Positions 4,648 to 59,014 of a DNA stretch of 64,000 bases are shown here, one piece after another; position 1 is the stretch's first letter, and each line of letters opens with the position of its first letter. The DNA is taken from sequence record NC_129898.1. One strand, given 5' to 3'. The position numbers and the translations under genes are program-made. The notes under the pieces are model-generated. The model did no database searches. It saw nothing but the letters and a program-made list of their open reading frames with translations, and was not told the origin of the DNA. This DNA comes from a phage.

Positions 4648-4760
4648 ACATACTCCGCATCGCATTTAGGACAATGCCAAATAAAATCGTCCAGTGCCTT
4701 ACACCAACGAAGATTGCAATGACAACCACACTTGCAAATTTTATAAATACCTGTAGACAT
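4644..4760 (-). CDS. small cysteine-rich (zinc-ribbon-like) protein, 38 aa
   Basis: Own translation MSTGIYKICKCGCHCNLRWCKALDDFIWHCPKCDAEYV; AGGAGGTG RBS; stop overlaps the nrdG ATG (ATGA); not in the track. Confidence 0.35.
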   Translation of the reverse strand: MSTGIYKICKCGCHCNLRWCKALDDFIWHCPKCDAEYV

Positions 4761-4823
4761 GCTGCACCTCCTAGTTTACTGTGTGACAACAATATGCAAC
4801 ATCCTTGTGACTTTTGTCAAGTA

Positions 4824-5786
4824 TCAGCAACCACAACTTCCGTAGTGCTTAACCCGTTCTATAACCTCCGCTTGCTTACCTTTATTGTAAGGACGGGAGT
4901 TTGGACTGGACAGATACCCGGATACACGTCTAATCACACTGATCGTTCCCTCTTCATGGTTTCCACACTCTGGGCATACAAAGCCTTTAGCTGTTGCACT
5001 GAACTCACCAGAGAATCCACACTTAAGACATTTATCCACAGGCTGGTTAATACCAAAATACATAATGTGTTTATATCCGAAATCAACAAGAGCTTCCAAA
5101 GCATCTAAGTTGTTTTTCAGATTTGGTGTCTCTATGTACCCAATGTTGCCACCAGAGGAGATCATAGCAAAACCTTCCTCATACTTCCACTTATCAAAAG
5201 GCGAGCTATTGATCCATACTGGCTGATGGAAACTGTTGGTGAGGTATTCATGCTCGTGCTTCAACACTTCTGGGTATTCACGATCCAGACAGGTTGCAGC
5301 TTTATAGCATAAACTCTCAGAAGGTGTGCCGTACAAGCTAAATGCTAGTCCACTTTCCTTCTTGTATCGCTCACAAGCATCTTTCATGTGCTGAAGGATT
5401 CCAAGAGCTAAAGCCTTGTCACCCTCTCTGCCCAAAATCTGACAGGTTTCATACACACCAATATACCCAATACTGATGGAAGCGTACCCGTCATAGAAGA
5501 GTTTATCGATACTCTCTTCAGGATCCAGGCTAGCAAGAGCTCCTTCACACCACATGATAGGGTTATGCCCTGCCTTTGTTCCTTTTAGACGGTTAACTCT
5601 TACAAGGTGAGCCTCATATGCCAAATCCAAATATTCGTCAAGAACTGCAAAGAAATCAACACCTTCCGTTTTAGCTTTTGCCGCAATCATTGGTAGGTTA
5701 AGGCTAACAACACCCAAGTTGAATCTGCCAAGGTATTTCTCCTCGCCTGTTACAGGGTCGCTATATTTCGATAAGAAACTTCTACA
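4824..5786 (-). CDS. nrdD: anaerobic ribonucleotide reductase, exon 2 (C-terminal part)
   Basis: Begins 'CRSFLS'; C-terminal zinc ribbon CLKC...CPEC and glycyl-radical motif 'RVSGYL'; in frame with exon 1 after removing 5787-6548. Confidence 0.7.
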   Translation of the reverse strand, partial: CRSFLSKYSDPVTGEEKYLGRFNLGVVSLNLPMIAAKAKTEGVDFFAVLDEYLDLAYEAHLVRVNRLKGTKAGHNPIMWCEGALASLDPEESIDKLFYDGYASISIGYIGVYETCQILGREGDKALALGILQHMKDACERYKKESGLAFSLYGTPSESLCYKAATCLDREYPEVLKHEHEYLTNSFHQPVWINSSPFDKWKYEEGFAMISSGGNIGYIETPNLKNNLDALEALVDFGYKHIMYFGINQPVDKCLKCGFSGEFSATAKGFVCPECGNHEEGTISVIRRVSGYLSSPNSRPYNKGKQAEVIERVKHYGSCGC

Positions 5787-6548
5787 CATTATGTTCAAGG
5801 TGGTTCGCAAGGCCACCCCCGCACCATTACGTGCTGCTGCATGTCCCCATGCAGATCAGACTATATCTTCACACTTAGTGTGTCTACCATTTCGAGTGTC
5901 ATCAGCTTACACCCTACACCGCTACATTCATCACGGTTAGTCGTTAGGCATTTCGTAACAGAACTCGTAATCATAGTTATTAGGTGCACCACGTTTCAGG
6001 ATAGCAGATATTCTTTTTCTATCTATTCCTAAAACATCAGCACAACATCTCAGACTCTTAAAGTGAATAACCACACCAGTTAATTTGTGGGTGGCTTTCA
6101 CCCCGTGACATCTTGTGTAAAAAGCATAACAGTTGTTGTCGTATCCTTCTTGAGTATTGTCTGGGCAAGCTCCCCACTCAAGGTTGTATACGCTGTTATC
6201 TTTCCTGTTGTCACCTTTGTGCTTAACATATGGTAAATTGTCTGGATTTGGTAAAAACGCTTCAGCAACAAGTCTGTGAACCCTTAGGCAAACAGTCTTT
6301 TTGTTCTTGCGTATCCTGACAAGACGGTAACCTGTGTTTATCTCTTCCCACGAATGAATAATTCTTTCATTTTCGTATCGGGTGCAATAAACATTGCCCA
6401 TCTCGTCAATTTCATAACCTTCAAAATCACGAATTTGTTTTCTCATTTCAGGACTCCTCTTAGTCAGGAGTTCTGTTACGTTTAGCACGGGATTGTCCGT
6501 TCTGGAGTTTCCCCGTTTAGATAGATTTTACATGAGCAGTTATAGTTT
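5787..6548 (-). mobile_element. group I intron in nrdD carrying an HNH homing endonuclease ORF
   Basis: Exon 1 ends in U (..AUGGGU) with a complementary guide 'GCUCAU' 11 nt into the insert; 'AAGAUAUAGUCU' resembles the group I core S element; hairpin CUGCAUG-GGGA-CAUGCAG; insert ends in G; splicing joins SMG to CRSFL in frame. Confidence 0.6.
5937..6446 (-). CDS. HNH homing endonuclease (intron-encoded)
   Basis: HNH-type region 'VHRLVAEAF...HKGDNRKDNSVYNLEW'; AAGAGGAG RBS before the ATG at 6446. Confidence 0.75.
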   Translation of the reverse strand: MRKQIRDFEGYEIDEMGNVYCTRYENERIIHSWEEINTGYRLVRIRKNKKTVCLRVHRLVAEAFLPNPDNLPYVKHKGDNRKDNSVYNLEWGACPDNTQEGYDNNCYAFYTRCHGVKATHKLTGVVIHFKSLRCCADVLGIDRKRISAILKRGAPNNYDYEFCYEMPND

Positions 6549-7709
6549 ACCCATGCTTGTTACTTTGCCGTCTGTTGAACCTGTCACTTTACGATTTAGT
6601 GGAACAGAAACAAAGTCAGGATAAATCCGCTCTGCAGAGCATTCTAGAGCCAATCGTTTCAAATCGTAGTTAGGATCCCCAGGGTTCATGTTGACACCCT
6701 CCTCTAAGAAGAACAGCACTTTAGGAAACACAGGGGTGATCCGTTCTTCACCAAGACCCATTTTGTGGACTTTCAAGTAGTTTTTGGTAATCATTCTACC
6801 AAAGACCGAGGTATCCAGTCCTAAACTTAATGTGATGAATGGAGTTTGCCCGTTGACAGAAGTTAACGTATTGATTTGGTAGAGCAAAGTTTGCATACTA
6901 TCAAACACGTCTTTATCTGTCATTTGCATTGCAACAGTCTCAGCATCTGGCAACCAATGCTCCTGACAAAATTTAAGGTTCTTCTCATAGGTTGCTTCAG
7001 CATACTGTGCCAGATAATGATCAATATGGCTCATGGTTTGACCACCATATTGAGCACTAGCTACTGCACTAGAGATTTGGCTAAGGATTGTTGTTGCAAC
7101 CCCTATTGACTTCGGCTTACTGACATGGGCGTTGCCAATGTTGAATCCGTTTTCCAGCATATCCGGATAATTTACCAAACAACAGTTTGTTAACGGACTG
7201 ATCAGGTAGTCAAGATCATGCACATGGATGAAGCCTTTGTTGTGCTCTTCGGAGACACGGTCTGGCAGGATCTGTGTTGATGCAAGATGTTTGCTAAGGA
7301 TGCCTGCAAGCAGGTCACGATGAGTGTGTACATGATTAGTAGGCTTATTTGCGTTTTCTTTTGTAAATTCATCACAAGTACGATCCAAGAAGCCACTAAT
7401 ATCTGCAAGCAGTTTTCCACCTGCCTCTCTGTTATTATCTCTTGTCTGTCTATACTGGATGTATTCTCTGGCTGCACATTTTAAACCCATATCCATAAGA
7501 GCATCTTCAACAAGGATATGGATATTTTTTACAGAGATCGTGCACTGGTCGGTTGGCAGATTGTTGGCAACAACTTCATTAACCGCACAGGCAATCCGGT
7601 AAGCTTCTTCTTCAGTATGTCCAGACTCAAGTAAGGCGGACTCTGCCGCCTTGATCACCTTAATTCCGTTATAAAACTCTTCTCTACCGTCCCGTTTTAC
7701 AACTTTCAC
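6549..7709 (-). CDS. nrdD: anaerobic ribonucleotide reductase, exon 1 (N-terminal part with ATP cone)
   Basis: ATP-cone-like N-terminus (VKRDGREEF...); the track ORF continues 3 codons into the intron before a stop. Confidence 0.7.
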
Positions 7710-7984
7710 TTTTTCTCTCCAAAACCATTCTTAACAAAAGAGATGAAATCGTCAGCACCACCTATGTGGATACTGTCAAGGTTGCTTTCCAAGAAGATCT
7801 GAGGCAACGTTCTGGGAACAAATGGGCTACACTTCTCGATAAGCTCTTCTTTTGTGTATCCCTCACCTAGCGTCTTGTATACGAAAGGTATGCCTTTGCT
7901 GACTGCAAATTCTTTTGCTCTTACACAATGTGGGCAGTTATCCTTGCCGTAAATGATGATGAAAAAAGATTTTTCGCAGCTCAT
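7706..7984 (-). CDS. glutaredoxin/NrdH-like redoxin
   Basis: 92 aa with a CPHC active site in a thioredoxin-fold context, next to the nrd genes. Confidence 0.6.
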   Translation of the reverse strand: MSCEKSFFIIIYGKDNCPHCVRAKEFAVSKGIPFVYKTLGEGYTKEELIEKCSPFVPRTLPQIFLESNLDSIHIGGADDFISFVKNGFGEKK

Positions 7985-7987
7985 ATA

Positions 7988-9076
7988 TTAAAACTCCCAA
8001 ATTTCTTCTTCAGCGTCGTTAACGGTTGTGTTGACGCGGTAGTCGGTGTTAGACATTTCCTGGTTAGCCGTCTGTTGCAGTGAAGGTTTCATCCACACCT
8101 GCATAAACGGTAGCGGGTCCTTTGTTGGCGGCACAAAGTCTTTGTCGATGTCGTAATAATCATAAATCGGTGAGCAGTTATAGTCAACCCATTCTTTAAG
8201 CAACGGGGAATTAAGACCTATAATCGCTCTTCCTTCGCTGAAAATATAGTCACTCCAACCGTACTCCTTGGTCCGCACTTCGTCAAGAATTTCTTTTAAC
8301 TCACCCTTAATCTCAAGAAAGCTTTGCTCCCATGCAGGATCATCAAGCAGGATATCGATGATAGCAAAATCACCTTTCGAATGCAGCATTTCATCAAGCA
8401 TAATTTTTTGAACAAGTTGTGCCACTTGAACAAAAATACCTTGCTCAGCTACTGCGAACGTACATGCAAAACTTGCAATAAACTCAATACTTTCTAGAGC
8501 TAAAAGTGCAAAAAGTGCTCTAAGGATACATTTCCGTACAACATCTTCTTCAACACTGGAAGGATCCAGTCGGTATTTTGCACCAATAACCTCAAGCTCT
8601 TGCATATATTTGACAATAACTCCAGATCTGCTCAGCACGTTCTGGTTTTCCTGAATCTCTTCTATAATCTCGCGAGCATTAGGAAGGCATTGTCTAACAA
8701 TCTCTGAGTAAGTTAGTGCATGAAGAACCTCAATCTCAGACTGCTTCATCAACAAGGTGAAAAGCTCACTGTTGGTGATAAATGGTGAAAACAGACAAAT
8801 GATAGATCTTGCTGCAACACTGTCTGCCTCCCATTGCCACATCAGTGTCTGCACCATCACATCGTAAGTTGACTTTGAGCATGTTACGAAATCAGAAATA
8901 GACTGTGACAAATCTACTTCGTCCTCTGCCCAATCTTGTTCTTTTTGTTTTTTGTATAGTTCAAACAGCTGTGGATACTTTTTGTTAATAGAGTCGTACA
9001 TCCCCATCTGCTGTCCTAGAAACAGCGGATAATCACCAGTTTTATGAGCAGTGTTCTCAGTATTAAATACGGACAT
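7988..9076 (-). CDS. nrdB: ribonucleotide reductase small subunit (class Ia)
   Basis: Ferritin-like protein of the right size immediately downstream of nrdA. Confidence 0.8.
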   Translation of the reverse strand: MSVFNTENTAHKTGDYPLFLGQQMGMYDSINKKYPQLFELYKKQKEQDWAEDEVDLSQSISDFVTCSKSTYDVMVQTLMWQWEADSVAARSIICLFSPFITNSELFTLLMKQSEIEVLHALTYSEIVRQCLPNAREIIEEIQENQNVLSRSGVIVKYMQELEVIGAKYRLDPSSVEEDVVRKCILRALFALLALESIEFIASFACTFAVAEQGIFVQVAQLVQKIMLDEMLHSKGDFAIIDILLDDPAWEQSFLEIKGELKEILDEVRTKEYGWSDYIFSEGRAIIGLNSPLLKEWVDYNCSPIYDYYDIDKDFVPPTKDPLPFMQVWMKPSLQQTANQEMSNTDYRVNTTVNDAEEEIWEF

Positions 9077-9082
9077 TATTCT

Positions 9083-9110
9083 ACCTCTAAAATGGGGCCG
9101 AAGCCCCTTT
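9083..9110 (-). other. intercistronic hairpin between nrdA and nrdB
   Basis: GGGGC-uucg-GCCCC hairpin with a weak U-tract on the minus-strand transcript. Confidence 0.4.
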
Positions 9111-9114
9111 TAAA

Positions 9115-11430
9115 TTACAGTGCACAACTTTCGCAATACGGATCTTCAACTGAACTATCTGCAATCAAAGGATAGTTCTTTCTGGTTTCATCTTCAGCCT
9201 GTTTCTTCGCGTGAAGCTCCTCTGTCAAAGAGTCACCAGCACCAACCCGAGAGTTTAAGTAATACCATGTCTTCATCCCGAATTTAGTAGCACGGATAAG
9301 ATACCCAAGCTGCTCCTTCATTGAAATTTTACCATCTTTCAACTTGGTGTAATCAATATATAGGTCAGCACTGATTGCCTGTCCTGTGAATTTTTGAATC
9401 ACAGCATACATATCAATCATGTCGTTAGTATCAACGTCCCAAGCCGAGGTATAATACTCTTTCAGTTCATCATATTCAGGAACGATAAACAGCACCTGCC
9501 CTTGTGGTGACTTTTTAAAGATAATGTGTTCACGGACAGGATAAACCCCGTTAGTGGTGTTTGTTGCCAACGAAGAGCTTTCATTAGGCATGTATGCTTC
9601 AAGAACGCTATTACGTAGTCCACCGTTTTCAATAATTTCTTTACGTAACCCTTCCCAATCCTGCTTAAGAGAAGGATCTTTCACCACACTATCGACCTCT
9701 TTGTTATAAGTGTCGATTGGTAACCAACCATCTGGGTATTTTGTTTTATGCATCCACTCGCAGACACCACGCTCTTTTGCCAATCGTAAACTTGCCTTAT
9801 GCAAGCTGTAGCTGTGGAGCTCTGCAAGATCGTGAACAAGCTGTTTACTTTCAGGAGATCCGTAAGCAACCTTGTGGCTGGCAATAAAATGTGCAACATT
9901 GGTAAGGCCAACCCCGATGGATCTGCGTTTTTTAACAGTGCTCTCCATATTTTCATACGGATATGTCATGATTTCCATAACATTGTCAATCATAAGCACA
10001 GTGTAGTATGCAACATCCTCATACTCCTCTGGGGTAACCCTTCCCGCTACAAGAGATGACAGGAAGCACAATGCAACTTCGCCATCATCAACATCGTACT
10101 TGAAGATATTACGCATATCTGAATAGCCTTTTGTCGGGAGGGCTATTTCTGCACACAGGTTACTTGAATAGATTACATCTTTAAAAGGTGTATGTCTATT
10201 CATCTCATCTGTCCAGTACACATACAATCTGCCAACCTCGGTACGCTGAGTGATCAGTTCAACAGCAAGGTCTCTAGCACGGATCCATGTTTTAGGAATG
10301 CTGTCATCTTTAGCAATACGATCAACCTCTGCATCAAACTCCTCCATAGACATGGTGAAGATACCCTCGTGCAGTTGAGGCGCGTGCTTATAGGAAACAA
10401 GCATCCAATCTAAATTCTTAGCCACACGGTTGATAAATGACCTATTAATACCTATAGAGTAGTCCATGGTGTTGATTCTTTTTGAAGCAACAGTCATAGG
10501 GTTTCTCAAACGGATTAGCTCATCAATCTGTGGGTCTAGCGCAAGAAATGATACCGTTGCCGAACCTCCGCGTGATTGTTGTCTATTCTCCTTAACCCCA
10601 GCATCAATACCTCGATAATATGGAAGCTTACCCATATGTTTAATAGTGTTACCACGAACACCATCACCTGCAGATCTTGATGATAAATAGTAGCCAATAC
10701 CTGCTTGGTTAACCGTCATTGTGTACGCAACTTCACGTGCCACACCAATAGATTTTGCTGTATCGTCAGCTTTTATTACACAACAAGATGCATACCCTGT
10801 CTTACCTGTGCGTAGACCGTTTAAGTACGGTGTCGGGGCATTGATCTTTAAGTCTGACAGATAAGTGTATAATTTTACAACATCGTCAATACGGCGTTCT
10901 TTCGGCATATTTTTCATGACAGCCATCGCTATCCCCATGAACATCATCTGTGGGGATTCGAACAGGGTGTCTTTAAGAGTATCCTTGATCCCGTATTTGT
11001 CTCGAAACTGTTTAAGGACTGCATAGCCATAACCAAGGTCTTTACTGTGATCAATAACAGTGTCTAAAGTGTTTAACTCGGTAAAGCTATAACCCATATC
11101 CTCCCAATACCCTTTATCAACCATGGTGTTGTAAAATGATGGTAAGGAAGGGATCTTTGTAAATCCTCCAAAAGCCTCTTTATAAATCTGACCGATAAGA
11201 ACACGACCAGCCATACGAGAATGTGCTTCGTCCTTACGGCTAACACAGGAGTCTATAATAGCTTGGTTAACTTCTTTGGTTGTGCATCCATCATACAGCC
11301 GTTTGTATGCATCAAGTGCAATATGTGACCAATTGCCGTTACCGTCGTCACCGAAAATAGCTGCCTTATTTAAACGTTCCGGATCGAATGCCACTTCACA
11401 TCCGTTGCTTTTAATTACCTTGGTGATCAA
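9115..11430 (-). CDS. nrdA: ribonucleotide reductase large subunit (class Ia)
   Basis: N-terminal ATP cone, conserved 'SNLCAEIALPT' active-site region and C-terminal Cys pair (CESCAL). Confidence 0.9.
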   Translation of the reverse strand: MITKVIKSNGCEVAFDPERLNKAAIFGDDGNGNWSHIALDAYKRLYDGCTTKEVNQAIIDSCVSRKDEAHSRMAGRVLIGQIYKEAFGGFTKIPSLPSFYNTMVDKGYWEDMGYSFTELNTLDTVIDHSKDLGYGYAVLKQFRDKYGIKDTLKDTLFESPQMMFMGIAMAVMKNMPKERRIDDVVKLYTYLSDLKINAPTPYLNGLRTGKTGYASCCVIKADDTAKSIGVAREVAYTMTVNQAGIGYYLSSRSAGDGVRGNTIKHMGKLPYYRGIDAGVKENRQQSRGGSATVSFLALDPQIDELIRLRNPMTVASKRINTMDYSIGINRSFINRVAKNLDWMLVSYKHAPQLHEGIFTMSMEEFDAEVDRIAKDDSIPKTWIRARDLAVELITQRTEVGRLYVYWTDEMNRHTPFKDVIYSSNLCAEIALPTKGYSDMRNIFKYDVDDGEVALCFLSSLVAGRVTPEEYEDVAYYTVLMIDNVMEIMTYPYENMESTVKKRRSIGVGLTNVAHFIASHKVAYGSPESKQLVHDLAELHSYSLHKASLRLAKERGVCEWMHKTKYPDGWLPIDTYNKEVDSVVKDPSLKQDWEGLRKEIIENGGLRNSVLEAYMPNESSSLATNTTNGVYPVREHIIFKKSPQGQVLFIVPEYDELKEYYTSAWDVDTNDMIDMYAVIQKFTGQAISADLYIDYTKLKDGKISMKEQLGYLIRATKFGMKTWYYLNSRVGAGDSLTEELHAKKQAEDETRKNYPLIADSSVEDPYCESCAL

Positions 11431-47107: not shown

Positions 47108-47120
47108 TAAACAGCACACA

Positions 47121-47145
47121 GGGGGCTCCGGCCCCCTTTATTTTA
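47121..47145 (+). terminator. rho-independent terminator
   Basis: GGGGGCTCCGGCCCCC hairpin followed by TTTATTTTAT. Confidence 0.6.
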
Positions 47146-50904: not shown

Positions 50905-51573
50905 ATGGCTGTAGCTTATCCTACAATACCAATTCCAGATCTTGAAGATGCAGAAACAGTCCTGAGTGATGACTTCTTGGTTGTCAATCAGACTGATGGG
51001 ACAAGAAAGGCTAAGATTGACGATGTTGTCAACGATCTCAGCATTACCAAAATAGTCTATTTCACAGAGGGTGGTTATCTTAAGAGCAAGAAGGACTTTG
51101 CTTATGACCCAGAGACCAAGCGCTACTACACGTGGAACGGGGATTATCCTAAAATAATCCTTCCAGACTCTACTGTAGAGGGTGCTGGAGGTGTGTCTGC
51201 AAAAGCCTGGTCTGTTTTTGGGGAGCTTGCTGCAACTTCTTCTGGCAGAATAGTTGATTACGGATCTATTGGTGGTCAGCTTGATATGGATCTTGAAGTT
51301 GCGGACACTTTTAAAGTTCGACTAACTTCAAATACCACAATCTCTTTTGAAAATCAAACAGAAGGCCTTGAAGGGGTGGCGAGAACTATAACCGTATGCA
51401 TTACTCAGACCTCTGGAGGCAACAAAGTCTATTGGCCTGATAATGTTAAATGGGCATACGGAAGAGATCCTATCCTAACATTTACAGCTGGTGCAACAGA
51501 TATTTTCAAGTTAGAAACCTACGACAACGGGCTAACTTGGTACGGGGCACTGATTATAGCAGGAGCTATCTAA
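50905..51573 (+). CDS. tail fibre/tailspike N-terminal anchor-domain protein
   Basis: N-terminus paralogous to the first ~110 residues of the 1479-aa fibre (DDFLVVNQTDGTRKAKIDDVV vs DDYLVVQQPDLTRRVKIGDVV). Confidence 0.5.
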   Translation: MAVAYPTIPIPDLEDAETVLSDDFLVVNQTDGTRKAKIDDVVNDLSITKIVYFTEGGYLKSKKDFAYDPETKRYYTWNGDYPKIILPDSTVEGAGGVSAKAWSVFGELAATSSGRIVDYGSIGGQLDMDLEVADTFKVRLTSNTTISFENQTEGLEGVARTITVCITQTSGGNKVYWPDNVKWAYGRDPILTFTAGATDIFKLETYDNGLTWYGALIIAGAI

Positions 51574-51574
51574 G

Positions 51575-54172
51575 ATGCGTATTCAACACAACATTGATAA
51601 CGTATTTCAGATGATTGAGGGGCACAGGAAGTGCCTCGATAACAACACAGGCATTACCAATCTCCCCACGCAGAACAAACTGGTAAACCAGGATGGACTT
51701 ATAGCGTCAGGTTGGTCAGGGAGTAAGATAAATAATGATTGGGCAATGCATGAAGCTCAGGCTGTGTTGATTCTGGGGTACATTGAGGCATACAGGGCAT
51801 CAAAAAGCGATTTTTACCTAGATAGGGCCAAAGAAGCTTGGGAAGCCTACAACAGTCATCTTCTGGGTGCCTATGCAGTAGAAAGTAAAATGCAAAGATT
51901 GTCCCACTACCCATTATCCACAGATGGGGTTCCATCACATGGTGGATTTAAAGATGTAGTGGTGTCTTTTACCAATGGTAGAGGAAAAATCCCAGCTGGA
52001 TCTCCGACATGGGGGGAATACTTAGACAAGGCATTCCAAGCGTATAACGGTGTGCTAGGAAGAAACACTGTAGACTCTGATGTTTACGGCGGCACAGATG
52101 CTAACCCAAATTGGACAACATCTGGATTAAGTTGGTGGGTTGAGTGGTATATAGCATGGGATGGTAACCGCTATTGGGCCAACGGTAGCATAGCCGACAG
52201 TGGTCATACGTCTGTAGAGTTCGGCACAATCCAACTGCAGGATAAGGGTGTTACAGGCAGCCACAAGGTAACCTACTGTGTAAGATTGCCACAAGAGCAG
52301 GGTGGATCGGTGATACCTGCTGGATCCCCTGTAATTGTAAATCCTATAAATGTGGTTGCAGACAATCAAGCCCCAGAGTTGGATGGGGAAGAAATGTGGT
52401 GTGACGCTTGTTATCAACTCTACACCTTGACAGGTGAGGAAAAGTATTACACAGCGTTTAAGCAGTCTTACAACAAGCTGCTTAATTTCAGCGATATAAA
52501 TGCCTACGACAAACTGTTTAGAAAGACCACGTTAATTAAGGCACCGTTCACAGATGGTACTTGTCTAGTCGCAGGAACAGTTCCTGTCATGAGCAGGGAC
52601 AGCGACGGGTATATCAATTTTAGAATGAACGCACGTCAGCCTTGCGAAATAATTCAAAAAGGGACTACATACAAGATAGGCAGAGATGCTGAAATTGTTA
52701 TGAATTTCGGAGGAGAAGGGGTTCTGTTCCAGCCACACTTCATCCTTAACGATGGCAACAATAACAAAAAACAGTATAGGATAGGTGTCCCTTTTGGAGG
52801 GGCAGAGGTAACAGAGACAGTTGCCAAGGTTACTGATTTCGTAGAGGTGGTTGGTAAAGATGGTAACCCGTATCTCTTACCAAAAGAGGAAAACATTGTC
52901 GTAAGCGGTGGCGCTAGTGTTAGTATGCAGTATGATACCGACATTTATAACCACTCCGACAACTTCACCCGTTGCAACATAGCAAGAGGCAAGGTAACTT
53001 TCAATTTTGGAAGAGAGATTTCTTTAAACTCAGTAACTTATCGATCAGATGATGAGATGATAAGGGTCAAATTTCTTGACAAAGACCGTTGGTTATGGTA
53101 TGCTGATCTATATGCCACTAATGGACAATGGATAACAGAAACTCTTACCCTAGGTGATTTTAAACTAGACCCAACACAACCTCATCACACAGAAGATGAG
53201 ATTAAACCTTTCTTTGCTAACCCTAAAGGAATTACCTCTGTAGATTTCAGTCTGAGCGACAGGCAGATAGGCAATGGCTTGTTCGATCTGTATTGCGTCA
53301 ACACGCTGCCACAATTTTATGTTGCAGATAGGGATGCTTATCTGATCTGGTTTAGTGTATGGATGGCAAGCAAGACAGAATCAACAGCCAAGGTTGGTGA
53401 TTGCTATGTCAGAAACTACAAGCAAGGTGCCTACAGGCACACCCCAGGTGTGTTCCCTGCCGGAAAGGTGATAGACAAGGAAAATTATCTCTTAGAGGAA
53501 AGGCCAAATTGGCCCTATCCTGGAATGCAATATCCGGTAGTCTACTGTATGGGTGCGGAAAACATAGATCGCCAAAGATTGGCAAATACCATTGGATTTA
53601 TGTACGACTCCCAAGTTTGGTATAACAACACATTTAAAACAGAAGGGCCAGTTGCATCTCGCTATGTATGGCAGAGGGGTAATGAGGGGTTGACTGGTTG
53701 GTGGGAGATGGTAGATAACTCTAAACTCCAATCAAGAGCCTTTGTTGCTGCGTGTCGCACACTATATGAGCTTAAGAAACATAAAGAACCTGTTGATGAA
53801 AGACTGTTCCTGTTCTGCCAGAAATGGGCATGGTTCCTCAACAGATTCCAGTCATCTCATTCCGGAAATCTTCCTACAGACTTCAACACCTCAGGAGGAT
53901 ATTCTTATCAAGACAGAGGTGACAGGATGTGGGTGGTAGGTGAATGGCTTGCAGGTTGCTGCTGGCTAGGCCTTTGTGGGTATTCAGAGACAATACCTCA
54001 AATAGATATTGTTGTAGAAGCCTGTGTGAAGTTACTGCAAAAGCACCACTTCATTAACGGGGATAATGTTTTAAACGGCTGCTGGGCAGTTTCTGATCCG
54101 GTAGGCTATCACTCTGGCGAAATCCTTCGCGGTCTGGGACTTTATGCTCAATACCGTGGATTGTACCTTTAA
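51575..54172 (+). CDS. tailspike-like protein, possible glycan-degrading domain
   Basis: 865 aa starting 2 nt after the anchor-domain ORF; N-terminal region suggests an alpha-helical toroid-type fold (weak). Confidence 0.45.
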   Translation: MRIQHNIDNVFQMIEGHRKCLDNNTGITNLPTQNKLVNQDGLIASGWSGSKINNDWAMHEAQAVLILGYIEAYRASKSDFYLDRAKEAWEAYNSHLLGAYAVESKMQRLSHYPLSTDGVPSHGGFKDVVVSFTNGRGKIPAGSPTWGEYLDKAFQAYNGVLGRNTVDSDVYGGTDANPNWTTSGLSWWVEWYIAWDGNRYWANGSIADSGHTSVEFGTIQLQDKGVTGSHKVTYCVRLPQEQGGSVIPAGSPVIVNPINVVADNQAPELDGEEMWCDACYQLYTLTGEEKYYTAFKQSYNKLLNFSDINAYDKLFRKTTLIKAPFTDGTCLVAGTVPVMSRDSDGYINFRMNARQPCEIIQKGTTYKIGRDAEIVMNFGGEGVLFQPHFILNDGNNNKKQYRIGVPFGGAEVTETVAKVTDFVEVVGKDGNPYLLPKEENIVVSGGASVSMQYDTDIYNHSDNFTRCNIARGKVTFNFGREISLNSVTYRSDDEMIRVKFLDKDRWLWYADLYATNGQWITETLTLGDFKLDPTQPHHTEDEIKPFFANPKGITSVDFSLSDRQIGNGLFDLYCVNTLPQFYVADRDAYLIWFSVWMASKTESTAKVGDCYVRNYKQGAYRHTPGVFPAGKVIDKENYLLEERPNWPYPGMQYPVVYCMGAENIDRQRLANTIGFMYDSQVWYNNTFKTEGPVASRYVWQRGNEGLTGWWEMVDNSKLQSRAFVAACRTLYELKKHKEPVDERLFLFCQKWAWFLNRFQSSHSGNLPTDFNTSGGYSYQDRGDRMWVVGEWLAGCCWLGLCGYSETIPQIDIVVEACVKLLQKHHFINGDNVLNGCWAVSDPVGYHSGEILRGLGLYAQYRGLYL

Positions 54173-54175
54173 CAT

Positions 54176-54198
54176 AGGGGGCTGTTTGCCCCCTTTCA
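54176..54198 (+). terminator. weak terminator-like hairpin
   Basis: GGGGGCTGTTTGCCCCC followed by TTT. Confidence 0.3.
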
Positions 54199-54207
54199 GG
54201 AGAAAGA

Positions 54208-57200
54208 ATGGCTGATATTAAAGTTGTCAGAATTGAATCTCTTCCTGCCACTACCGCAGTGGCAGAGGATGATTACCTGGTTGTTCAACAACCAGACCTG
54301 ACCCGTCGTGTAAAAATTGGCGATGTTGTCCATATAGATGGGACTGTTTCTCATGTAATCTCCTTTAAGGAAGGTGGTAAGTTAAACGGCCCAATGGATT
54401 TTGCCTACTTCGAAGAGGAAGACCTCTACCTGCGTTGGAAAGGCGAATTTCCGCACACTGTTCCTGCACTGTCTTCACCGTACGCCGATGGTGGGATTAC
54501 CGATGCTGCATGGATGGTATATACAGACCCGTCCTTAAGAGAGGAGCTGGAGTCTACCATTGGCGCATCTATGATCATGACAGCCGAGGGGCAGTCTGTA
54601 CAGGATGTAATGGATGTTACTGTTCAGACAGCCAACGATGCCAAAGCACTTGCACAGCGGGTAGATTTTGGTACGGTGCATACTGTAGGCGATGTCATTC
54701 ACCTTGTCAACTTTGTTGGTCCTGCAGTTATTGAAGAGGGAAGAACTACTAACTACCCTTCTGAAGCAGCTGGTGAAAAATTTCTGAACGGTGTGGTATC
54801 TCGTCGTGATACTACAACTGTTGATGGTATTTTCCGTGGCGCTACCTCCGGAGCCATGTATACCATTGCAGTAACCAACGGTGTAGCAACAACAAAAAGA
54901 ATAGCACTTCGTGATGAATTTAAACGCCTGGAGGCAAACAATCCAACAAGAACAGTTATCCGTGCTGGAGATGATTTAAACACGGCAGGGTACTTGCAGC
55001 TTGATGCAACAGGCCGTTGGGGTATGTGGAACCAGCAAACAGCCTCGTGGCAACCTCTTGCTATAGAGCAAGGCGGTACAGGAGCCAGAGATGCCGCTGG
55101 AGTCCGTATCAATATCGGTGCTTTCTATAAGCAACGTGCAGCCCTTGAGGCAAATTTCAATATCAATAACTTAACTGGTAATCAGGACGGCATATACTAC
55201 CAGCCAATGACTGCTAATGCAACTGAGGAAAATGGTTATCCTGCAGGTTCTGGTGCTGGTCACTTGATTGTTTGGCAGAACAATGCTAACGGTGGCACAG
55301 GCTGTCGTCAGGAATACTATCCATTCTCTAACGTGGATGTTTGGTATTTGAGAACCTATCAGGCCAACACAAACCAATGGACTGCATGGCAGCCGATGGT
55401 CAGACCTCGGAATGATGACACCTTCAGATCTCATATCGGCCTTGGTAAAAACAACTCACCTGCTTTCGGGCACCTTTACTTAGCTCAGTACTCAGGAGAT
55501 GTTAAATCTGCCTCAGGTATTCTCCATGGAGATAAATATAACACTGATGGTGTTCTTGAGCATGGTTATAGGATCTACTCAGAGGTAAGAAACGACAATA
55601 AGGCTTGGTTAACAATCCACCTGCACAAAGGTGCAAAAGGATCTGAAACTCATCGGTATTTGGGTTTCCGCGAAGATGGTGTATTAGACTGTCCTAAATA
55701 CATGCAGGTTGGGGATCTTACTGGTCAGCTGACAAACTGGGGACTTGGAGAATGGATTCGTAGTTCAGGGGCAGAAAGAGGGTTCTGGGGTTCCAAGAAA
55801 GCCGCTAAGATGGTCGTCTGGGATGGCGGTATGGATGAATCTGGTAATGGTACTCTAGAATGGGGTGTTTATAACAACCGGAAGGCCAAGTGGGAACCTT
55901 TACCTCAAGCCGCAGGTGGCACTGGGGCTACAACCCTGGCAGATGCTCAGAATCTGTTCAAAGTTCCTATAGCTGCGGGTGTCAAAGATTTCTTAACACT
56001 GCCAAGAACTGCAGGGATGGAAGATGGGAAATACTACCCAATCATCGTTAGAACAGATCCGTATTATGCTCCAGCAACTGGCACTGATATTACCCTAGTC
56101 ACCAGATCGTCATCTGGCGGTGACCCTATGAACTGCGCCACCTTACAGTGTCACTATAGAACTGGCGGTTGGACAGATAGAGGGGACTCTTTCTACGGGG
56201 TAGTGAATTTCTATCAAAATGAAAAAGCACTTCTTGGGATGGTTGCTCCAACAAGGGGTAAACAAGAGTATGTTGCTTTCTATGCAGAGGCTCGTGCTTT
56301 CCCTGTCAGCATATACGCAAGCAGAAATGTTGTCGAAGTGTTTACCAGAGAGCAAGATTATCAAGTCGGCTCTGTAACAAACAATCAGGACGGTGTTAAG
56401 TTCGTTGCACCTCTCCAGTCAGCAGATTTAAATCTGGCTGTTCTCGGAGATAACAATACCAACACCAGACCTATTGTTGACTTCAAAGGTACCTCTGGGT
56501 TCTACACTGGCGGCGGCACACAGTGGCACTATATAGGCACTGCTGAACGCTATGCGGTGATGAGCAAAATGAACATGCCTAAAGTCGAACTATGGGCTGA
56601 CGGTATTGACTATTTGTGCTACGGCAGTCCTAGAAAGGCGTTATTCTCTAACGCAGGATTCCAGTGTGCATCAGATGGGACAGATGATCTTACTAACGGT
56701 ACGTTTACCTCTAAATGTGGTAATGGTGCTGGCCTCCAAGGTCAAGCAGAGTTCAGGTCTACTCCAGAAGCTGGTCAAGTTATTGTTCGTGATGTTGTAG
56801 GTTCCGCTCACAGATTCTACAATTTCAACAAAGACGGTACTTTCTCGGCCCCTGGTGGTTTTGTATGCCACACAGGTGCAGACTGGAACAACCAGTTCGG
56901 AAATAATAATCCGTCCAAAATACTGGCTGGCAACGTCAACGGGCCTGAAGGTTCAATGGTTGTTGGCGGGTTGTCTGTGGCGTTTTCTGGAAACTATGCT
57001 TTCCAGATGGCAGGTCGTTTAGATCAGCTGTACACCCGTTCCATAGAGCAGGGTAACCACAGAGCGTGGAACAAAGTTATTCAGCACCGTGGTCAAGGGT
57101 TGGGGACTAGCGACCTTAACGATTACAAAGCGGATCGCGAAGGTATCTACCATCAAGAGGCAAATGCCAACGCCACAGCGGAAAGACACTACCCACCAGG

Positions 57201-58647
57201 ACAGCAGATGGCTGGTACGCTGATCGTGCTTAGAAACTCTGCCAACGAGGGTACAGGGTGTGTCCAGATATATAAAATGTATCTTGGAGGAACGTGGGAA
57301 AGGTACTATAATAACACTGGCAGCGGAATGAACTGGAGCCCTTGGAAGAGAACGAGCTTCCCAGAAAGTACAACTGCCCCAGTCATGCCTGACCTGTGGT
57401 TGCCTTTAACCTCTAATCTAAAACCTGTACTAGGTGAAGGTGAGATGGTGTTCTCCAGACCTTCTACAGCAACATATTTCACTAAGCGCGGTGTCATGGC
57501 TGTTGCACAGGCAAACCAACCACGTTTCGAAAGAGATGGTCTGCTCATTGAAGGTCAAAGGACAAATCTGATGCTTAATAGTGAGGACCCGAGCAAGTGG
57601 GGGGCAAGTCAACAGATCACTGTTGGCAACACTGTAACAAACACTAACGGAACAAAAGGTGCAAGATTTACAGTAAACACCATATCCGGTGTAGAAACAA
57701 CGGCGTTAAACCTGGCTACAGTTCCAGCCACTCGGGGTGCAGATGTGACAGGTGATGAGAAATTTTGTACTGGATCTATTATTGCAAGAGGTGGTAAAGC
57801 TCACCAGAGACTGCGTGTAAGATTCGACATGTATAACGGATCCACCACAGTATTCCAGGGTGATGCCTATGTTAACCTGTCAACACTTGAAGTTAAAACA
57901 ACAGGTGGTGCAGCTGGGAGAATTAAAGTAAAAGCTGAGAGATGGCAAACAGCCGGACCTGCTTGGATAAGGGTTGTTGCTACGTTTGAGGCAGCGGCCT
58001 CTGACATGAATATTGGGTGCCAGTTCCAGATTTCACCACCGGAGGGTTCTCAACATGCCGTAGGGGATTGGATTGACGTCGCAATACCTCAGTTTGAGTT
58101 AGGATCTTGTGAGTCCTCGTTTATCCCTACAGGGTCTTCACCAGTGACTAGGGCAGCAGACCTTTGTAAATTCCCAATGACTGATAATTTAGCACCTAGA
58201 CCGTTCACCATCGCCGCTACGGTGGATGCCAACTGGAGAGGTTGGGGAAAAGCTCCTAACGCAGCTCCTAGGGTTATTGATACAGAGCTCCATCAATCCG
58301 GTGCTGCATTTATCATGGGTTTTGGCTCTTCAGCAAATATTGCAGATGATGGTTACCCATATTGCGATATTGGCGGTTCAAACAGACGTGTCTATGAGAT
58401 GGCTAAAACACGTAAATTGAAGATTGGGTTCAGGATAAAAGATGACGGTAAAACCTGCTCTTTTGCTAACGGATTGGTAAGTACGGAAACGCAATCTTCT
58501 TGGGAATTCCTGGCAGGAGGCGCTTTCATCCGTATCGGTGGGCAAACCGCAACTGGTGAAAGACATTTGTTTGGTCATATCAAGGATATAAGGGTTTGGA
58601 ACTCTGCACTGACCGACACCCAGCTTATGATGGAGAGTGTTGAATAA
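54208..58647 (+). CDS. large tail fibre protein
   Basis: 1479 aa; N-terminal anchor domain shared with 50905-51573; two paralogous internal modules. Confidence 0.7.
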   Translation: MADIKVVRIESLPATTAVAEDDYLVVQQPDLTRRVKIGDVVHIDGTVSHVISFKEGGKLNGPMDFAYFEEEDLYLRWKGEFPHTVPALSSPYADGGITDAAWMVYTDPSLREELESTIGASMIMTAEGQSVQDVMDVTVQTANDAKALAQRVDFGTVHTVGDVIHLVNFVGPAVIEEGRTTNYPSEAAGEKFLNGVVSRRDTTTVDGIFRGATSGAMYTIAVTNGVATTKRIALRDEFKRLEANNPTRTVIRAGDDLNTAGYLQLDATGRWGMWNQQTASWQPLAIEQGGTGARDAAGVRINIGAFYKQRAALEANFNINNLTGNQDGIYYQPMTANATEENGYPAGSGAGHLIVWQNNANGGTGCRQEYYPFSNVDVWYLRTYQANTNQWTAWQPMVRPRNDDTFRSHIGLGKNNSPAFGHLYLAQYSGDVKSASGILHGDKYNTDGVLEHGYRIYSEVRNDNKAWLTIHLHKGAKGSETHRYLGFREDGVLDCPKYMQVGDLTGQLTNWGLGEWIRSSGAERGFWGSKKAAKMVVWDGGMDESGNGTLEWGVYNNRKAKWEPLPQAAGGTGATTLADAQNLFKVPIAAGVKDFLTLPRTAGMEDGKYYPIIVRTDPYYAPATGTDITLVTRSSSGGDPMNCATLQCHYRTGGWTDRGDSFYGVVNFYQNEKALLGMVAPTRGKQEYVAFYAEARAFPVSIYASRNVVEVFTREQDYQVGSVTNNQDGVKFVAPLQSADLNLAVLGDNNTNTRPIVDFKGTSGFYTGGGTQWHYIGTAERYAVMSKMNMPKVELWADGIDYLCYGSPRKALFSNAGFQCASDGTDDLTNGTFTSKCGNGAGLQGQAEFRSTPEAGQVIVRDVVGSAHRFYNFNKDGTFSAPGGFVCHTGADWNNQFGNNNPSKILAGNVNGPEGSMVVGGLSVAFSGNYAFQMAGRLDQLYTRSIEQGNHRAWNKVIQHRGQGLGTSDLNDYKADREGIYHQEANANATAERHYPPGQQMAGTLIVLRNSANEGTGCVQIYKMYLGGTWERYYNNTGSGMNWSPWKRTSFPESTTAPVMPDLWLPLTSNLKPVLGEGEMVFSRPSTATYFTKRGVMAVAQANQPRFERDGLLIEGQRTNLMLNSEDPSKWGASQQITVGNTVTNTNGTKGARFTVNTISGVETTALNLATVPATRGADVTGDEKFCTGSIIARGGKAHQRLRVRFDMYNGSTTVFQGDAYVNLSTLEVKTTGGAAGRIKVKAERWQTAGPAWIRVVATFEAAASDMNIGCQFQISPPEGSQHAVGDWIDVAIPQFELGSCESSFIPTGSSPVTRAADLCKFPMTDNLAPRPFTIAATVDANWRGWGKAPNAAPRVIDTELHQSGAAFIMGFGSSANIADDGYPYCDIGGSNRRVYEMAKTRKLKIGFRIKDDGKTCSFANGLVSTETQSSWEFLAGGAFIRIGGQTATGERHLFGHIKDIRVWNSALTDTQLMMESVE

Positions 58648-58979
58648 TGAATACTTTTACCCTTTGGTTCACTGGCAGGGAGGATTTTAACGGTTTCATG
58701 GACGAAATCGGCTTTTACGAGAACGAGGTGTTGCAAAACACCCTTCTTGTAGAGGTTGTCGGGTTCATTTACACAGAAACTGAAGACACTTATGAGGCCG
58801 AGGACGAGTTTGGCAACATGGTTGTCTACCCAGTTTGCGAGAAAAGTAAATTGTTTTATGTCAACGTTCTGGCTCTGGACGAGGATGCAGAAAACATCGT
58901 CTCGAAAAGCGGAAAAGTTGTAGATCCGATAAGGTTGAACATGTTCGACCAATCAGTATCTACCTTGGAAGCACTTTAA
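58647..58979 (+). CDS. putative tail fibre assembly/chaperone protein
   Basis: 110-aa acidic ORF overlapping the fibre stop (ATGA). Confidence 0.4.
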   Translation: MNTFTLWFTGREDFNGFMDEIGFYENEVLQNTLLVEVVGFIYTETEDTYEAEDEFGNMVVYPVCEKSKLFYVNVLALDEDAENIVSKSGKVVDPIRLNMFDQSVSTLEAL

Positions 58980-58985
58980 AGTATT

Positions 58986-59014
58986 GCCCTCGCTTCGGCG
59001 GGGGCTTTTTGTTT
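58986..59014 (+). terminator. rho-independent terminator
   Basis: GCCCTCGC-ttcg-GCGGGGGC hairpin followed by TTTTTGTTTG. Confidence 0.6.

Follow-up and report, generated by a model that had tools for sequence, protein, structure and literature searches.

Several genes of the coliphages rV5 and phi92 are labeled "putative tail fibers" in published work, which leaves their placement open, and Maffei 2021 called the assignment of fiber genes in rV5-like and related phages unclear. The products gp43 and gp42 of rV5 were both detected in virions by mass spectrometry (Kropinski 2013, PMC3606486), and Piya et al. (PMC7229145) reported an endosialidase-chaperone domain in rV5 gp41, while seeing no enzymatic domains in the tail proteins of phage LL12 (Piya 2020, PMC7229145). 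In the branched tailspikes of phages CBA120 and G7C, the N-terminal head domain of TSP1/Gp66 corresponds to the family PF18668 (Tail_spike_N). For the fibers of R-type pyocins, Buth et al. (PMC6116203) described knobs as folding or structural beads that are common in saccharide-binding fibers and Knob2 as a possible second binding site. Here, we analyzed positions 50905 to 58647 of the window (the whole 64,000-nucleotide [nt] stretch of phage sequence record NC_129898.1), which is the first block of the lateral-fiber locus in an rV5-like myovirus and holds three open reading frames (ORFs) for proteins of 222, 865, and 1,479 amino acids (aa). The 222-aa protein (the putative adaptor) and the anchorless 865-aa protein make up a portable two-gene cassette, which sequence comparison traced to phages of all three tail types (myo-, sipho-, and podoviruses) as well as to a prophage and in which the N terminus of the adaptor alone varies, and the 1,479-aa fiber shares the attachment module of the adaptor.

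Results

In a nucleotide search, the 7.7-kb fiber region (50905 to 58647) was matched in 122 phage records, 72 of which span at least 80% of the query. Nearly all of these 72 records are 90 to 98% identical at the nucleotide level, and, with few exceptions, they are rV5-like Escherichia phages (genus Vequintavirus), with HMD-6, ECP26, rV5_ev146, and BASEL phages among the close relatives. For more than 100 genomes, the nucleotide identity is 92 to 98%, and more than 70 Vequintavirus genomes reach these values along the entire locus and have the same four genes. The gene order is the same as in phage EmilHeitz, where the preceding genes encode the tape measure, tube initiator, hub, central spike, and a baseplate protein and where the annotations read "sialidase domain protein" (222 aa), "lateral tail fiber protein with glycosidase domains" (865 aa), "lateral tail fiber protein" (1,478 aa), and then "hypothetical protein." Full-length nucleotide identity and an equal order of genes after those for the hub, spike, and baseplate proteins thus identify a Vequintavirus lateral-fiber locus, in which the 222-, 865-, and 1,479-aa genes are, as judged by sequence, the apparent counterparts of rV5 gp43, gp42, and gp41 (PMC3606486, PMC7229145). 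The gene pair has the following features.

50905-51573, plus strand: putative adaptor, 222 aa; ORF, orthologue of rV5 gp43, related to phi92 gp140
50905-51219, plus strand: N-terminal attachment module of the adaptor, aa 1-105; N-terminal segment of ~45 aa, then Tail_spike_N at aa 51-104
51250-51570, plus strand: C-terminal domain of the adaptor, ~105 aa, termed the dock; predicted beta-sandwich
51561-51577, plus strand: junction; AGGAG ribosome-binding site, TAA of the adaptor gene, one base, ATG of the large gene
51575-54172, plus strand: large anchorless protein, 865 aa; orthologue of rV5 gp42, homologue of phi92 gp141

An earlier reading of this DNA made from the letters alone (the sequence-only reading) described the 222-aa ORF as an anchor and nothing else. 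This description was inaccurate, because the protein consists of an anchor and a conserved C-terminal domain of about 105 aa, and it is that domain and not the anchor that accompanies the large protein. Homologues of the 865-aa protein with approximately 25 to 35% identity were found in 526 phage records, and the dock domain alone was found in 524, with genus counts (dock/large) of 239/242 for Escherichia, 99/101 for Salmonella, 33/33 for Erwinia, 23/23 for Campylobacter-labeled records, and 12/12 for Cronobacter; this co-occurrence may be taken as an indirect sign that adaptor and partner bind each other. We inspected 10 lineages: phi92-like Justusliebigvirus, Rosemountvirus SE13, Erwinia phage Coenus, the Aeromonas autographivirid Atoyac23, Vibrio phage D510, the jumbo Seoulvirus SPFM17, Salmonella phage PMBT28, the Grimontviridae podovirus 7-11, the lambda-like Klebsiella siphovirus KLB29, and coliphage PJNS034. 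All 10 have a separate gene for a protein of 157 to 325 aa immediately 5' of the large-family gene, and a small protein ending in the dock lies directly 5' of a large-family member in 12 of the 13 other dock-containing lineages that were checked. Of the 222-aa protein, the upstream proteins conserve no more than the C-terminal ~105 residues (BLASTP E values of 1e-15 to 1e-29 and, for further cases, profile E values of 1e-22 to 1e-35), and their N-terminal parts are mutually unrelated in a distance matrix. Three curated attachment domains were found on adaptor N termini, namely, PF18668 in the window, PF03906 (T7 tail-fiber N) in Atoyac23, and PF08400 (prophage tail-fiber N, lambda Stf type) in KLB29. 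A prophage of Burkholderia vietnamiensis (GCA_902829795.1, L021 4567-8736, beside an integrase gene) encodes a 473-aa protein composed of SPRY and a C-terminal dock (E = 1e-23), and the gene of a 911-aa family member begins 12 nt farther on. In the metagenome phage L022 (ERR11172694_13567), a dock-only protein of 107 aa (4685-5008) overlaps a 1,633-aa family member (5001-9902) that has a C-terminal extension of ~700 aa.

The sequence-only reading had also stated that the first ~110 residues encoded by 50905-51573 and 54208-58647 are paralogous, as in phages that hang several receptor-binding proteins on one attachment site, and both parts of this statement were borne out. BLASTP aligned residues 8 to 105 of the adaptor with residues 7 to 105 of the fiber at 38% identity over 99 aa (E = 2e-18), a significant similarity, and both N termini scored above the PF18668 gathering threshold of 25 bits, with matches at aa 51 to 104 of the adaptor (40.5 bits, E = 3e-10) and aa 50 to 103 of the fiber (38.1 bits). 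Among PDB sequences, the adaptor N terminus matched 9occ gp13, 8x8m, TSP3, TSP4, and TSP1 of CBA120, and gp63.1 of G7C, and the fiber N terminus matched 9occ (E = 3e-10), 9d84, and 9lna. A tblastn search with the module across the 64-kb window found no third copy, the next match having an E value above 0.3. The adaptor also matched phrog_7760 "tail fiber" (E = 6e-119), and the adaptors of relatives are 99% identical to it. A hidden Markov model (HMM) of the module shows two parts, the N-terminal segment of ~45 aa and the PF18668 domain. By the same HMM, the adaptor of the phi92-like phage PaulScherrer keeps the first part only, while a downstream 624-aa enzymatic fiber has both; since this adaptor and the second fiber have module parts in common, the sharing of the module is conserved beyond the genus Vequintavirus. 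In PaulScherrer, both subdomains (E = 1e-16) lie on this 624-aa fiber annotated as "hydrolase" (L009 10997-12922), and a 102-aa ORF annotated as "tailspike protein" (L009 12976-13281) weakly matches the second subdomain (E = 0.02).

The 865-aa protein matched no Pfam family (E values up to 0.1) and no PDB sequence (E values up to 1), and neither PF18668 nor any similarity to the anchor module was found in it, in agreement with the earlier claim that it lacks such an anchor. Its family is small, with approximately 90 clusters among 1.84 billion representatives, and in most full-length clusters the family domain begins at most ~20 residues from the N terminus, so that these proteins have no anchor of their own. 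Within the genus, the protein is 97% conserved. As its orthologue gp42 was detected in rV5 virions, the anchorless protein is a structural component whose mounting needs explaining. The predicted fold is a discontinuous (alpha/alpha)6 barrel made from three separated segments with large inserted beta-sandwich domains resembling carbohydrate-binding modules, and the model shows the six-hairpin toroid of the (alpha/alpha)6-barrel glycoside hydrolase superfamily; at the level of predicted structure, this fold assignment is robust. Five acidic residues are invariant in the family (E60, D270, D678, E732, and E849), and the conserved N-terminal helix carries the motif GHxxFLxxNTG. The dock domain is probably an XD1-like sandwich; a 12-sequence dock profile found no match among PDB sequences. 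Because the dock ends the chain, its distal face would be free.

Three further observations on these families stand apart. In the metagenome protein P0066 (293 aa), the initial ~194 residues of the large family precede a dock (E = 1e-21) within one ORF; this order is opposite to the usual one and could be due to an assembly chimera or a genuine rearrangement. The first ~40 residues of the dock protein of Roseobacter phage CRP-4 resemble the rV5/phi92 anchor segment by eye only. A Mantel test of dock against large-protein distances (r = 0.45, P = 0.0006) was discarded, as it was driven by the trivially close pair formed by the window and the related locus L004.

The third gene of the block encodes the lateral fiber, and it and the elements that follow it are arranged as listed below.

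54208-58647, plus strand: lateral tail fiber, 1,479 aa; positional orthologue of rV5 gp41 with an LL12-type tip; phrog_6578 and phrog_1419
54208-54522, plus strand: attachment module of the fiber, aa 1-105; paralogue of the adaptor module
55138-55410, plus strand: knob domain copy 1, aa 311-401; profile match to pyocin knobs
57091-57363, plus strand: knob domain copy 2, aa 962-1052; start of the exchangeable distal cassette
57439-58629, plus strand: distal tip domain, lectin-like, aa 1078-1474; 6tb9 sequence match; phrog_1419
58647-58979, plus strand: 110-aa ORF overlapping the fiber stop codon; phrog_1361; candidate tip-specific accessory or chaperone protein
58986-59005, plus strand: intrinsic-terminator-like hairpin of 8 bp, 7 of them G-C, then a T-run; closes the unit

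The internal duplication proposed for this fiber is real: alignment of residues ~318 to 400 with ~969 to 1050 gave 41% identity over 83 aa (E = 6e-11) in one comparison and 50% over 54 aa (E = 9e-13) in another, and the window holds only these two copies. A profile built from eight copies of the repeat matched the knobs of R1/R2 pyocin fibers, namely, 6ct8 (E = 8.9e-6), 6cl6 (3e-5), and 6cl5 (4.9e-5), over ~70 residues of Knob2, and this sequence-profile similarity identifies the repeats as knob domains. They do not form a tandem directly before shaft and foot but lie ~560 aa apart. Pfam searches with the isolated repeats and the segments between them gave no match. Orthologues of the fiber in relatives range from 1,268 to 1,619 aa, and all of them have both knob copies at equivalent positions; each knob is closer to its orthologue (53 to 56% identity) than to its paralogue (34%), and thus the knob duplication is old.

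Compared with the fiber of the relative L003, identity is 96 to 100% up to residue 550 and 94 to 96% at residues 801 to 950, and across knob 2 it falls from 96% (901 to 950) to 68% (951 to 1000) and 40% (1001 to 1050), then to approximately 0 to 22%. The distal tip matched the sequence of the RcGTA head spike fiber 6tb9 at aa 1080 to 1322 (E = 2.7e-8) and phrog_1419 (E = 5e-122), together with a subthreshold match to Laminin_G_3/concanavalin A (ConA)-like domains (E = 0.001). Three tip types were found among the relatives: the ConA-like/RcGTA-head-spike-like type of the window, an rV5 type whose motif SDRDLKDNIEVI may be read as the endosialidase-chaperone domain, and a type with His-x-His repeats. 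The 110-aa ORF downstream of the fiber was found in L001 and L008, whose ConA-like tip is that of the window; it was not detected in L003 (rV5-type tip), where a downstream 196-aa gene was found, and neither the 110-aa ORF nor the 196-aa gene was found in L004 to L006 (His-x-His-repeat tip). The ORF co-varies with the tip and is a candidate tip-specific chaperone. By these alignments, relatives exchange a distal cassette that consists of knob 2, the lectin-like tip, and the 110-aa accessory gene and has its boundary at knob 2. The earlier suggestion of modular shuffling therefore held for the swapping of distal cassettes from knob 2 onward but not for the duplication itself, which consists of ancient knob copies kept in all orthologues and reflects no recent shuffle.

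The same duplication had been read as a possible source of two receptor specificities, as opposed to knobs that are mainly structural or folding beads. Such a role would have a parallel in R pyocins, where variability is highest in Knob2 and the C-terminal lectin domain, two proposed binding sites ~100 Å apart (PMC6116203), and knob 2 co-varies with the tip in the relatives of the window. However, knob 1 is conserved (96 to 100% identity to L003) while the tips differ, as for a structural element, the two copies are old and only 34 to 50% identical, and Buth 2018 (PMC6116203) stress the role of knobs in trimer folding. On balance, we consider dual specificity unlikely.

A second G+C-rich terminator-like hairpin lies at 47120-47137, after the tape-measure gene, and no G+C-rich terminator-like site comparable to the hairpins at 47120 and 58986 was found between the fiber genes. 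The two hairpins enclose a block that starts with the tube-initiator and hub genes and ends with the 110-aa ORF, which suggests that the adaptor, enzyme, and fiber genes belong to a single late transcription unit. The GC skew of the window flips near 26 kb, from negative in 1-26000 to positive in 26000-64000, a pattern that would be consistent with two divergent gene blocks encoded on opposite strands. Approximately 20 GenBank records (MG0656xx) named "Campylobacter phage," with Campylobacter jejuni as host, are ~92% identical in nucleotide sequence to rV5-like coliphages across this locus; their host labels look doubtful, and contamination of phage stocks may be the source.

Discussion

The homologies and folds, together with the split that recurs among relatives and the co-occurrence of the two families, are what the analysis showed; from them we infer a mechanism in which the attachment site, the physical docking, and the enzymatic activity would be as follows. 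The adaptor would have three parts, with its N-terminal segment and Tail_spike_N head fixing it to the baseplate or the fiber network and the C-terminal dock sandwich as the third part. The 865-aa protein would ride on the dock, probably through its N-terminal helix (GHxxFLxxNTG), and the adaptor and this glycoside-hydrolase-like (alpha/alpha)6 protein would together form a two-component enzymatic fiber that binds or cuts a conserved surface glycan. The cassette is portable across tail types, with only the adaptor N terminus changing to suit the local tail, and the 1,479-aa fiber would be mounted like the adaptor, by the same attachment module in one chain. We give this explanation as a whole, that is, a pair of adaptor and anchorless enzyme forming a portable cassette next to a fiber with the same module, a probability of roughly 0.68. 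It is in keeping with the finding that, in the window and in 12 other lineages, a small protein with a tail-attachment N terminus and no enzymatic body adjoins an anchorless large partner.

Several points weigh against this explanation. A 2026 cryo-electron microscopy (cryo-EM) study of phi92 (PMC13450770) could not fit gp140 into any fiber density. Chao 2022 regarded XD1 domains as spacers and not as binding surfaces, and the XD1 fold binds glycans in CpaA and StcE, so that a lectin tip is another possible role for the dock. The dock-only protein of L022 reduces the pair to its minimum and is at odds with the small protein acting simply as an anchor, and in Roseobacter phage CRP-4 (L017 3210-5825) the gene after that of a 205-aa dock protein encodes an unrelated protein of 661 aa, the only unpaired case seen. 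Some large-family members exist as one-chain forms with N-terminal extensions of ~280 aa that are alike among themselves (Serratia jumbo phage PCH45 [L013 3158-7156], P0025, P0030, P0035, and P0065). Finally, searches of Pfam and PDB sequences assigned the 865-aa protein to no curated family and gave no identifiable catalytic residues or activity, and both AlphaFold2 models are of moderate confidence (predicted local distance difference test [pLDDT] score of 64, from seven-sequence alignments). Concerning phi92, Chen 2026 (PMC13450770) did not mention gp141, left fiber II unassigned, and tried gp140 only on its own. A bolder form of the proposal, in which the dock and the enzyme N terminus would make a self-contained connector for any tail type and gp43 plus gp42, or gp140 plus gp141, would be the lateral fiber left unassigned by cryo-EM (fiber II of phi92), is tentative, and we regard it as somewhat doubtful.

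The strongest competitor of the adaptor-enzyme pair holds that the 222-aa protein is an independent short spike with a glycan-binding C-terminal tip, that the 865-aa protein attaches otherwise, and that the link between them is functional and not physical. This would accord with the description of XD1 as a nonbinding spacer or glycan-binding fold (Chao 2022), with the likening of phi92 gp140 to the Pa223 head spike (Chen 2026, PMC13450770), and with the dock of CRP-4 that has no large partner. It leaves unexplained, however, the near one-to-one co-occurrence and strict adjacency in unrelated phages, the mounting of an anchorless 865-aa virion protein, and the dock-only 107-aa protein that overlaps its partner gene in L022, and we find it improbable.

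Less probable still, and in our judgment very unlikely, is that the small protein or its dock acts as an assembly chaperone for the large protein and not as a permanent adaptor. Phage fiber chaperones are commonly encoded beside their client, the two genes are tightly coupled and always adjacent, and a dock-only version without an anchor exists. However, the small gene lies upstream of its partner, unlike those of most fiber chaperones, which lie downstream, the small proteins bear the structural attachment domains PF18668, PF03906, and PF08400, and rV5 gp43 is present in purified virions (PMC3606486).

The sequence-only reading had left a choice between a split two-component tailspike and a frameshift, and the conserved split strongly favors the two-component form. 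At the junction, AGGAG (51561-65) precedes the adaptor TAA (51571-73), a single G, and the ATG at 51575, and the 865-aa ORF lies in the +1 frame, which is closed by a TAG at 51557-59, five codons before that ATG. The frames are open together only over 51560-51573 (CAGGAGCTATCTAA), a stretch that contains no slippery heptamer or run. This geometry is identical in eight related loci (L001 to L008), metagenomic relatives included, in which adaptor identity goes down to 75% and large-protein identity to 57%, and the large gene is translationally coupled to the adaptor gene. In the 10 more distant annotated lineages, the junctions range between 35 nt of overlap and a gap of 3 nt, and in the Burkholderia prophage the two genes are 12 nt apart; such differing geometry rules out a shared frameshift device, and, together with the separate upstream gene in all 10 lineages, excludes sequencing error, recent mutation, and a conserved programmed frameshift. 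Thus, although the two ORFs sit one base apart in neighboring frames and a minority of the family carries ~280-aa extensions in one chain, the idea of a single tailspike gene broken by sequencing error or frameshift mutation, or joined by programmed frameshifting, is effectively refuted by the recurrence of one junction in eight independent loci, its good AGGAG and closed +1 frame, the retention of the split with other overlaps and frames in 10 other lineages, the annotation of separate genes in more than 100 genomes, and fused extensions that are not significantly dock-like (hhalign probability of 2.6%).

The one-chain forms were not used as "Rosetta stone" evidence, because only a short motif resembling W-P-x-N-x-x-W or T-x-D-x-G-x-x-W matches the dock; hmmsearch gave an E value of 0.06 for the PCH45 extension, and the match of P0030 was weak (E = 1e-5 in a 95-sequence set).

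The locus is an ordinary and widely sequenced one, in which every part is of a known kind, and the general picture of modular phage receptor-binding proteins is unchanged by our findings. The new element is modest, namely, the recognition of a portable cassette of dock and putative enzyme with interchangeable anchors, on which we found no paper within the literature searched. The rV5- and phi92-like phages are among the coliphages with the broadest host range and are therapy candidates, and reading gp43/gp140 as the adaptor for gp42/gp141 provides a concrete model that can be fitted to the phi92 maps. If the dock is a true connector independent of tail type, a large glycan-active protein could be mounted on myo-, sipho-, or podovirus tails by changing ~100 to 200 N-terminal residues. 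The knob-2 boundary offers a natural splice point for swaps of fiber tips.

Among known systems, the closest are the lateral-fiber loci of Vequintavirinae and Justusliebigvirus, namely, rV5 gp43-gp42-gp41 and phi92 gp140-gp141 with its gp143-type fiber; the window genes are orthologous to those of the Vequintavirus genomes, in which their order is alike, and the difference from rV5 lies in the fiber tip, which is of the ConA-like LL12 type in the window and has an endosialidase-chaperone domain in rV5. The phi92-like PaulScherrer encodes a 157-aa dock protein and then a 958-aa homologue of the large protein with 35% identity, and, as in the window, the N-terminal segment of its adaptor is common to a downstream enzymatic fiber. 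In contrast to the window adaptor, the phi92-type adaptor has no Tail_spike_N subdomain. R-pyocin fibers (6CL5, 6CL6, and 6CT8) likewise have two knobs and then a lectin-like tip, with the second knob in the variable part, but the window knobs are ~560 aa apart and not in tandem, and they belong to a much longer fiber with another N-terminal attachment. Compared with the (alpha/alpha)6-barrel enzymes of the GH105, GH88, GH8, GH76, and AGE families, the 865-aa protein is only 9 to 14% identical, and, unlike these glycoside hydrolases and epimerases, its predicted barrel is built from three separated segments with large beta inserts.

Two groups illustrate the principle by which one protein carries another, as proposed here, the first of them more loosely than the second. 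In the Ackermannviridae phage CBA120 (TSP1 to TSP4) and in G7C (gp63.1/gp66), several receptor-binding proteins have a PF18668 head, as in our locus, and the predicted structure of the adaptor resembles the N-terminal modules of CBA120 TSP1, TSP3, and TSP4 and TSP4-N. In those branched complexes, the carried tailspike binds via its own D1-D2 head domain, which the 865-aa protein lacks, and for that reason the pair does not belong in the branched-tailspike group; moreover, the carrier here is small and has no enzymatic body, and the predicted fold of the enzyme is an (alpha/alpha)6 barrel and not a beta-helix. The second group comprises gp37 of SP6, K1-5, and K1E and the Klebsiella KP32 type, with a branching domain in RBP1 and a docking peptide in RBP2, where a small adaptor with a tail-attachment N terminus carries an anchorless enzyme encoded nearby (PMC6872550, PMC6966330). 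As a point of similarity, the Aeromonas podovirus form of the cassette bears the T7-fiber N domain PF03906; in contrast, the cassette described here spans all three tail morphologies and has a different partner family.

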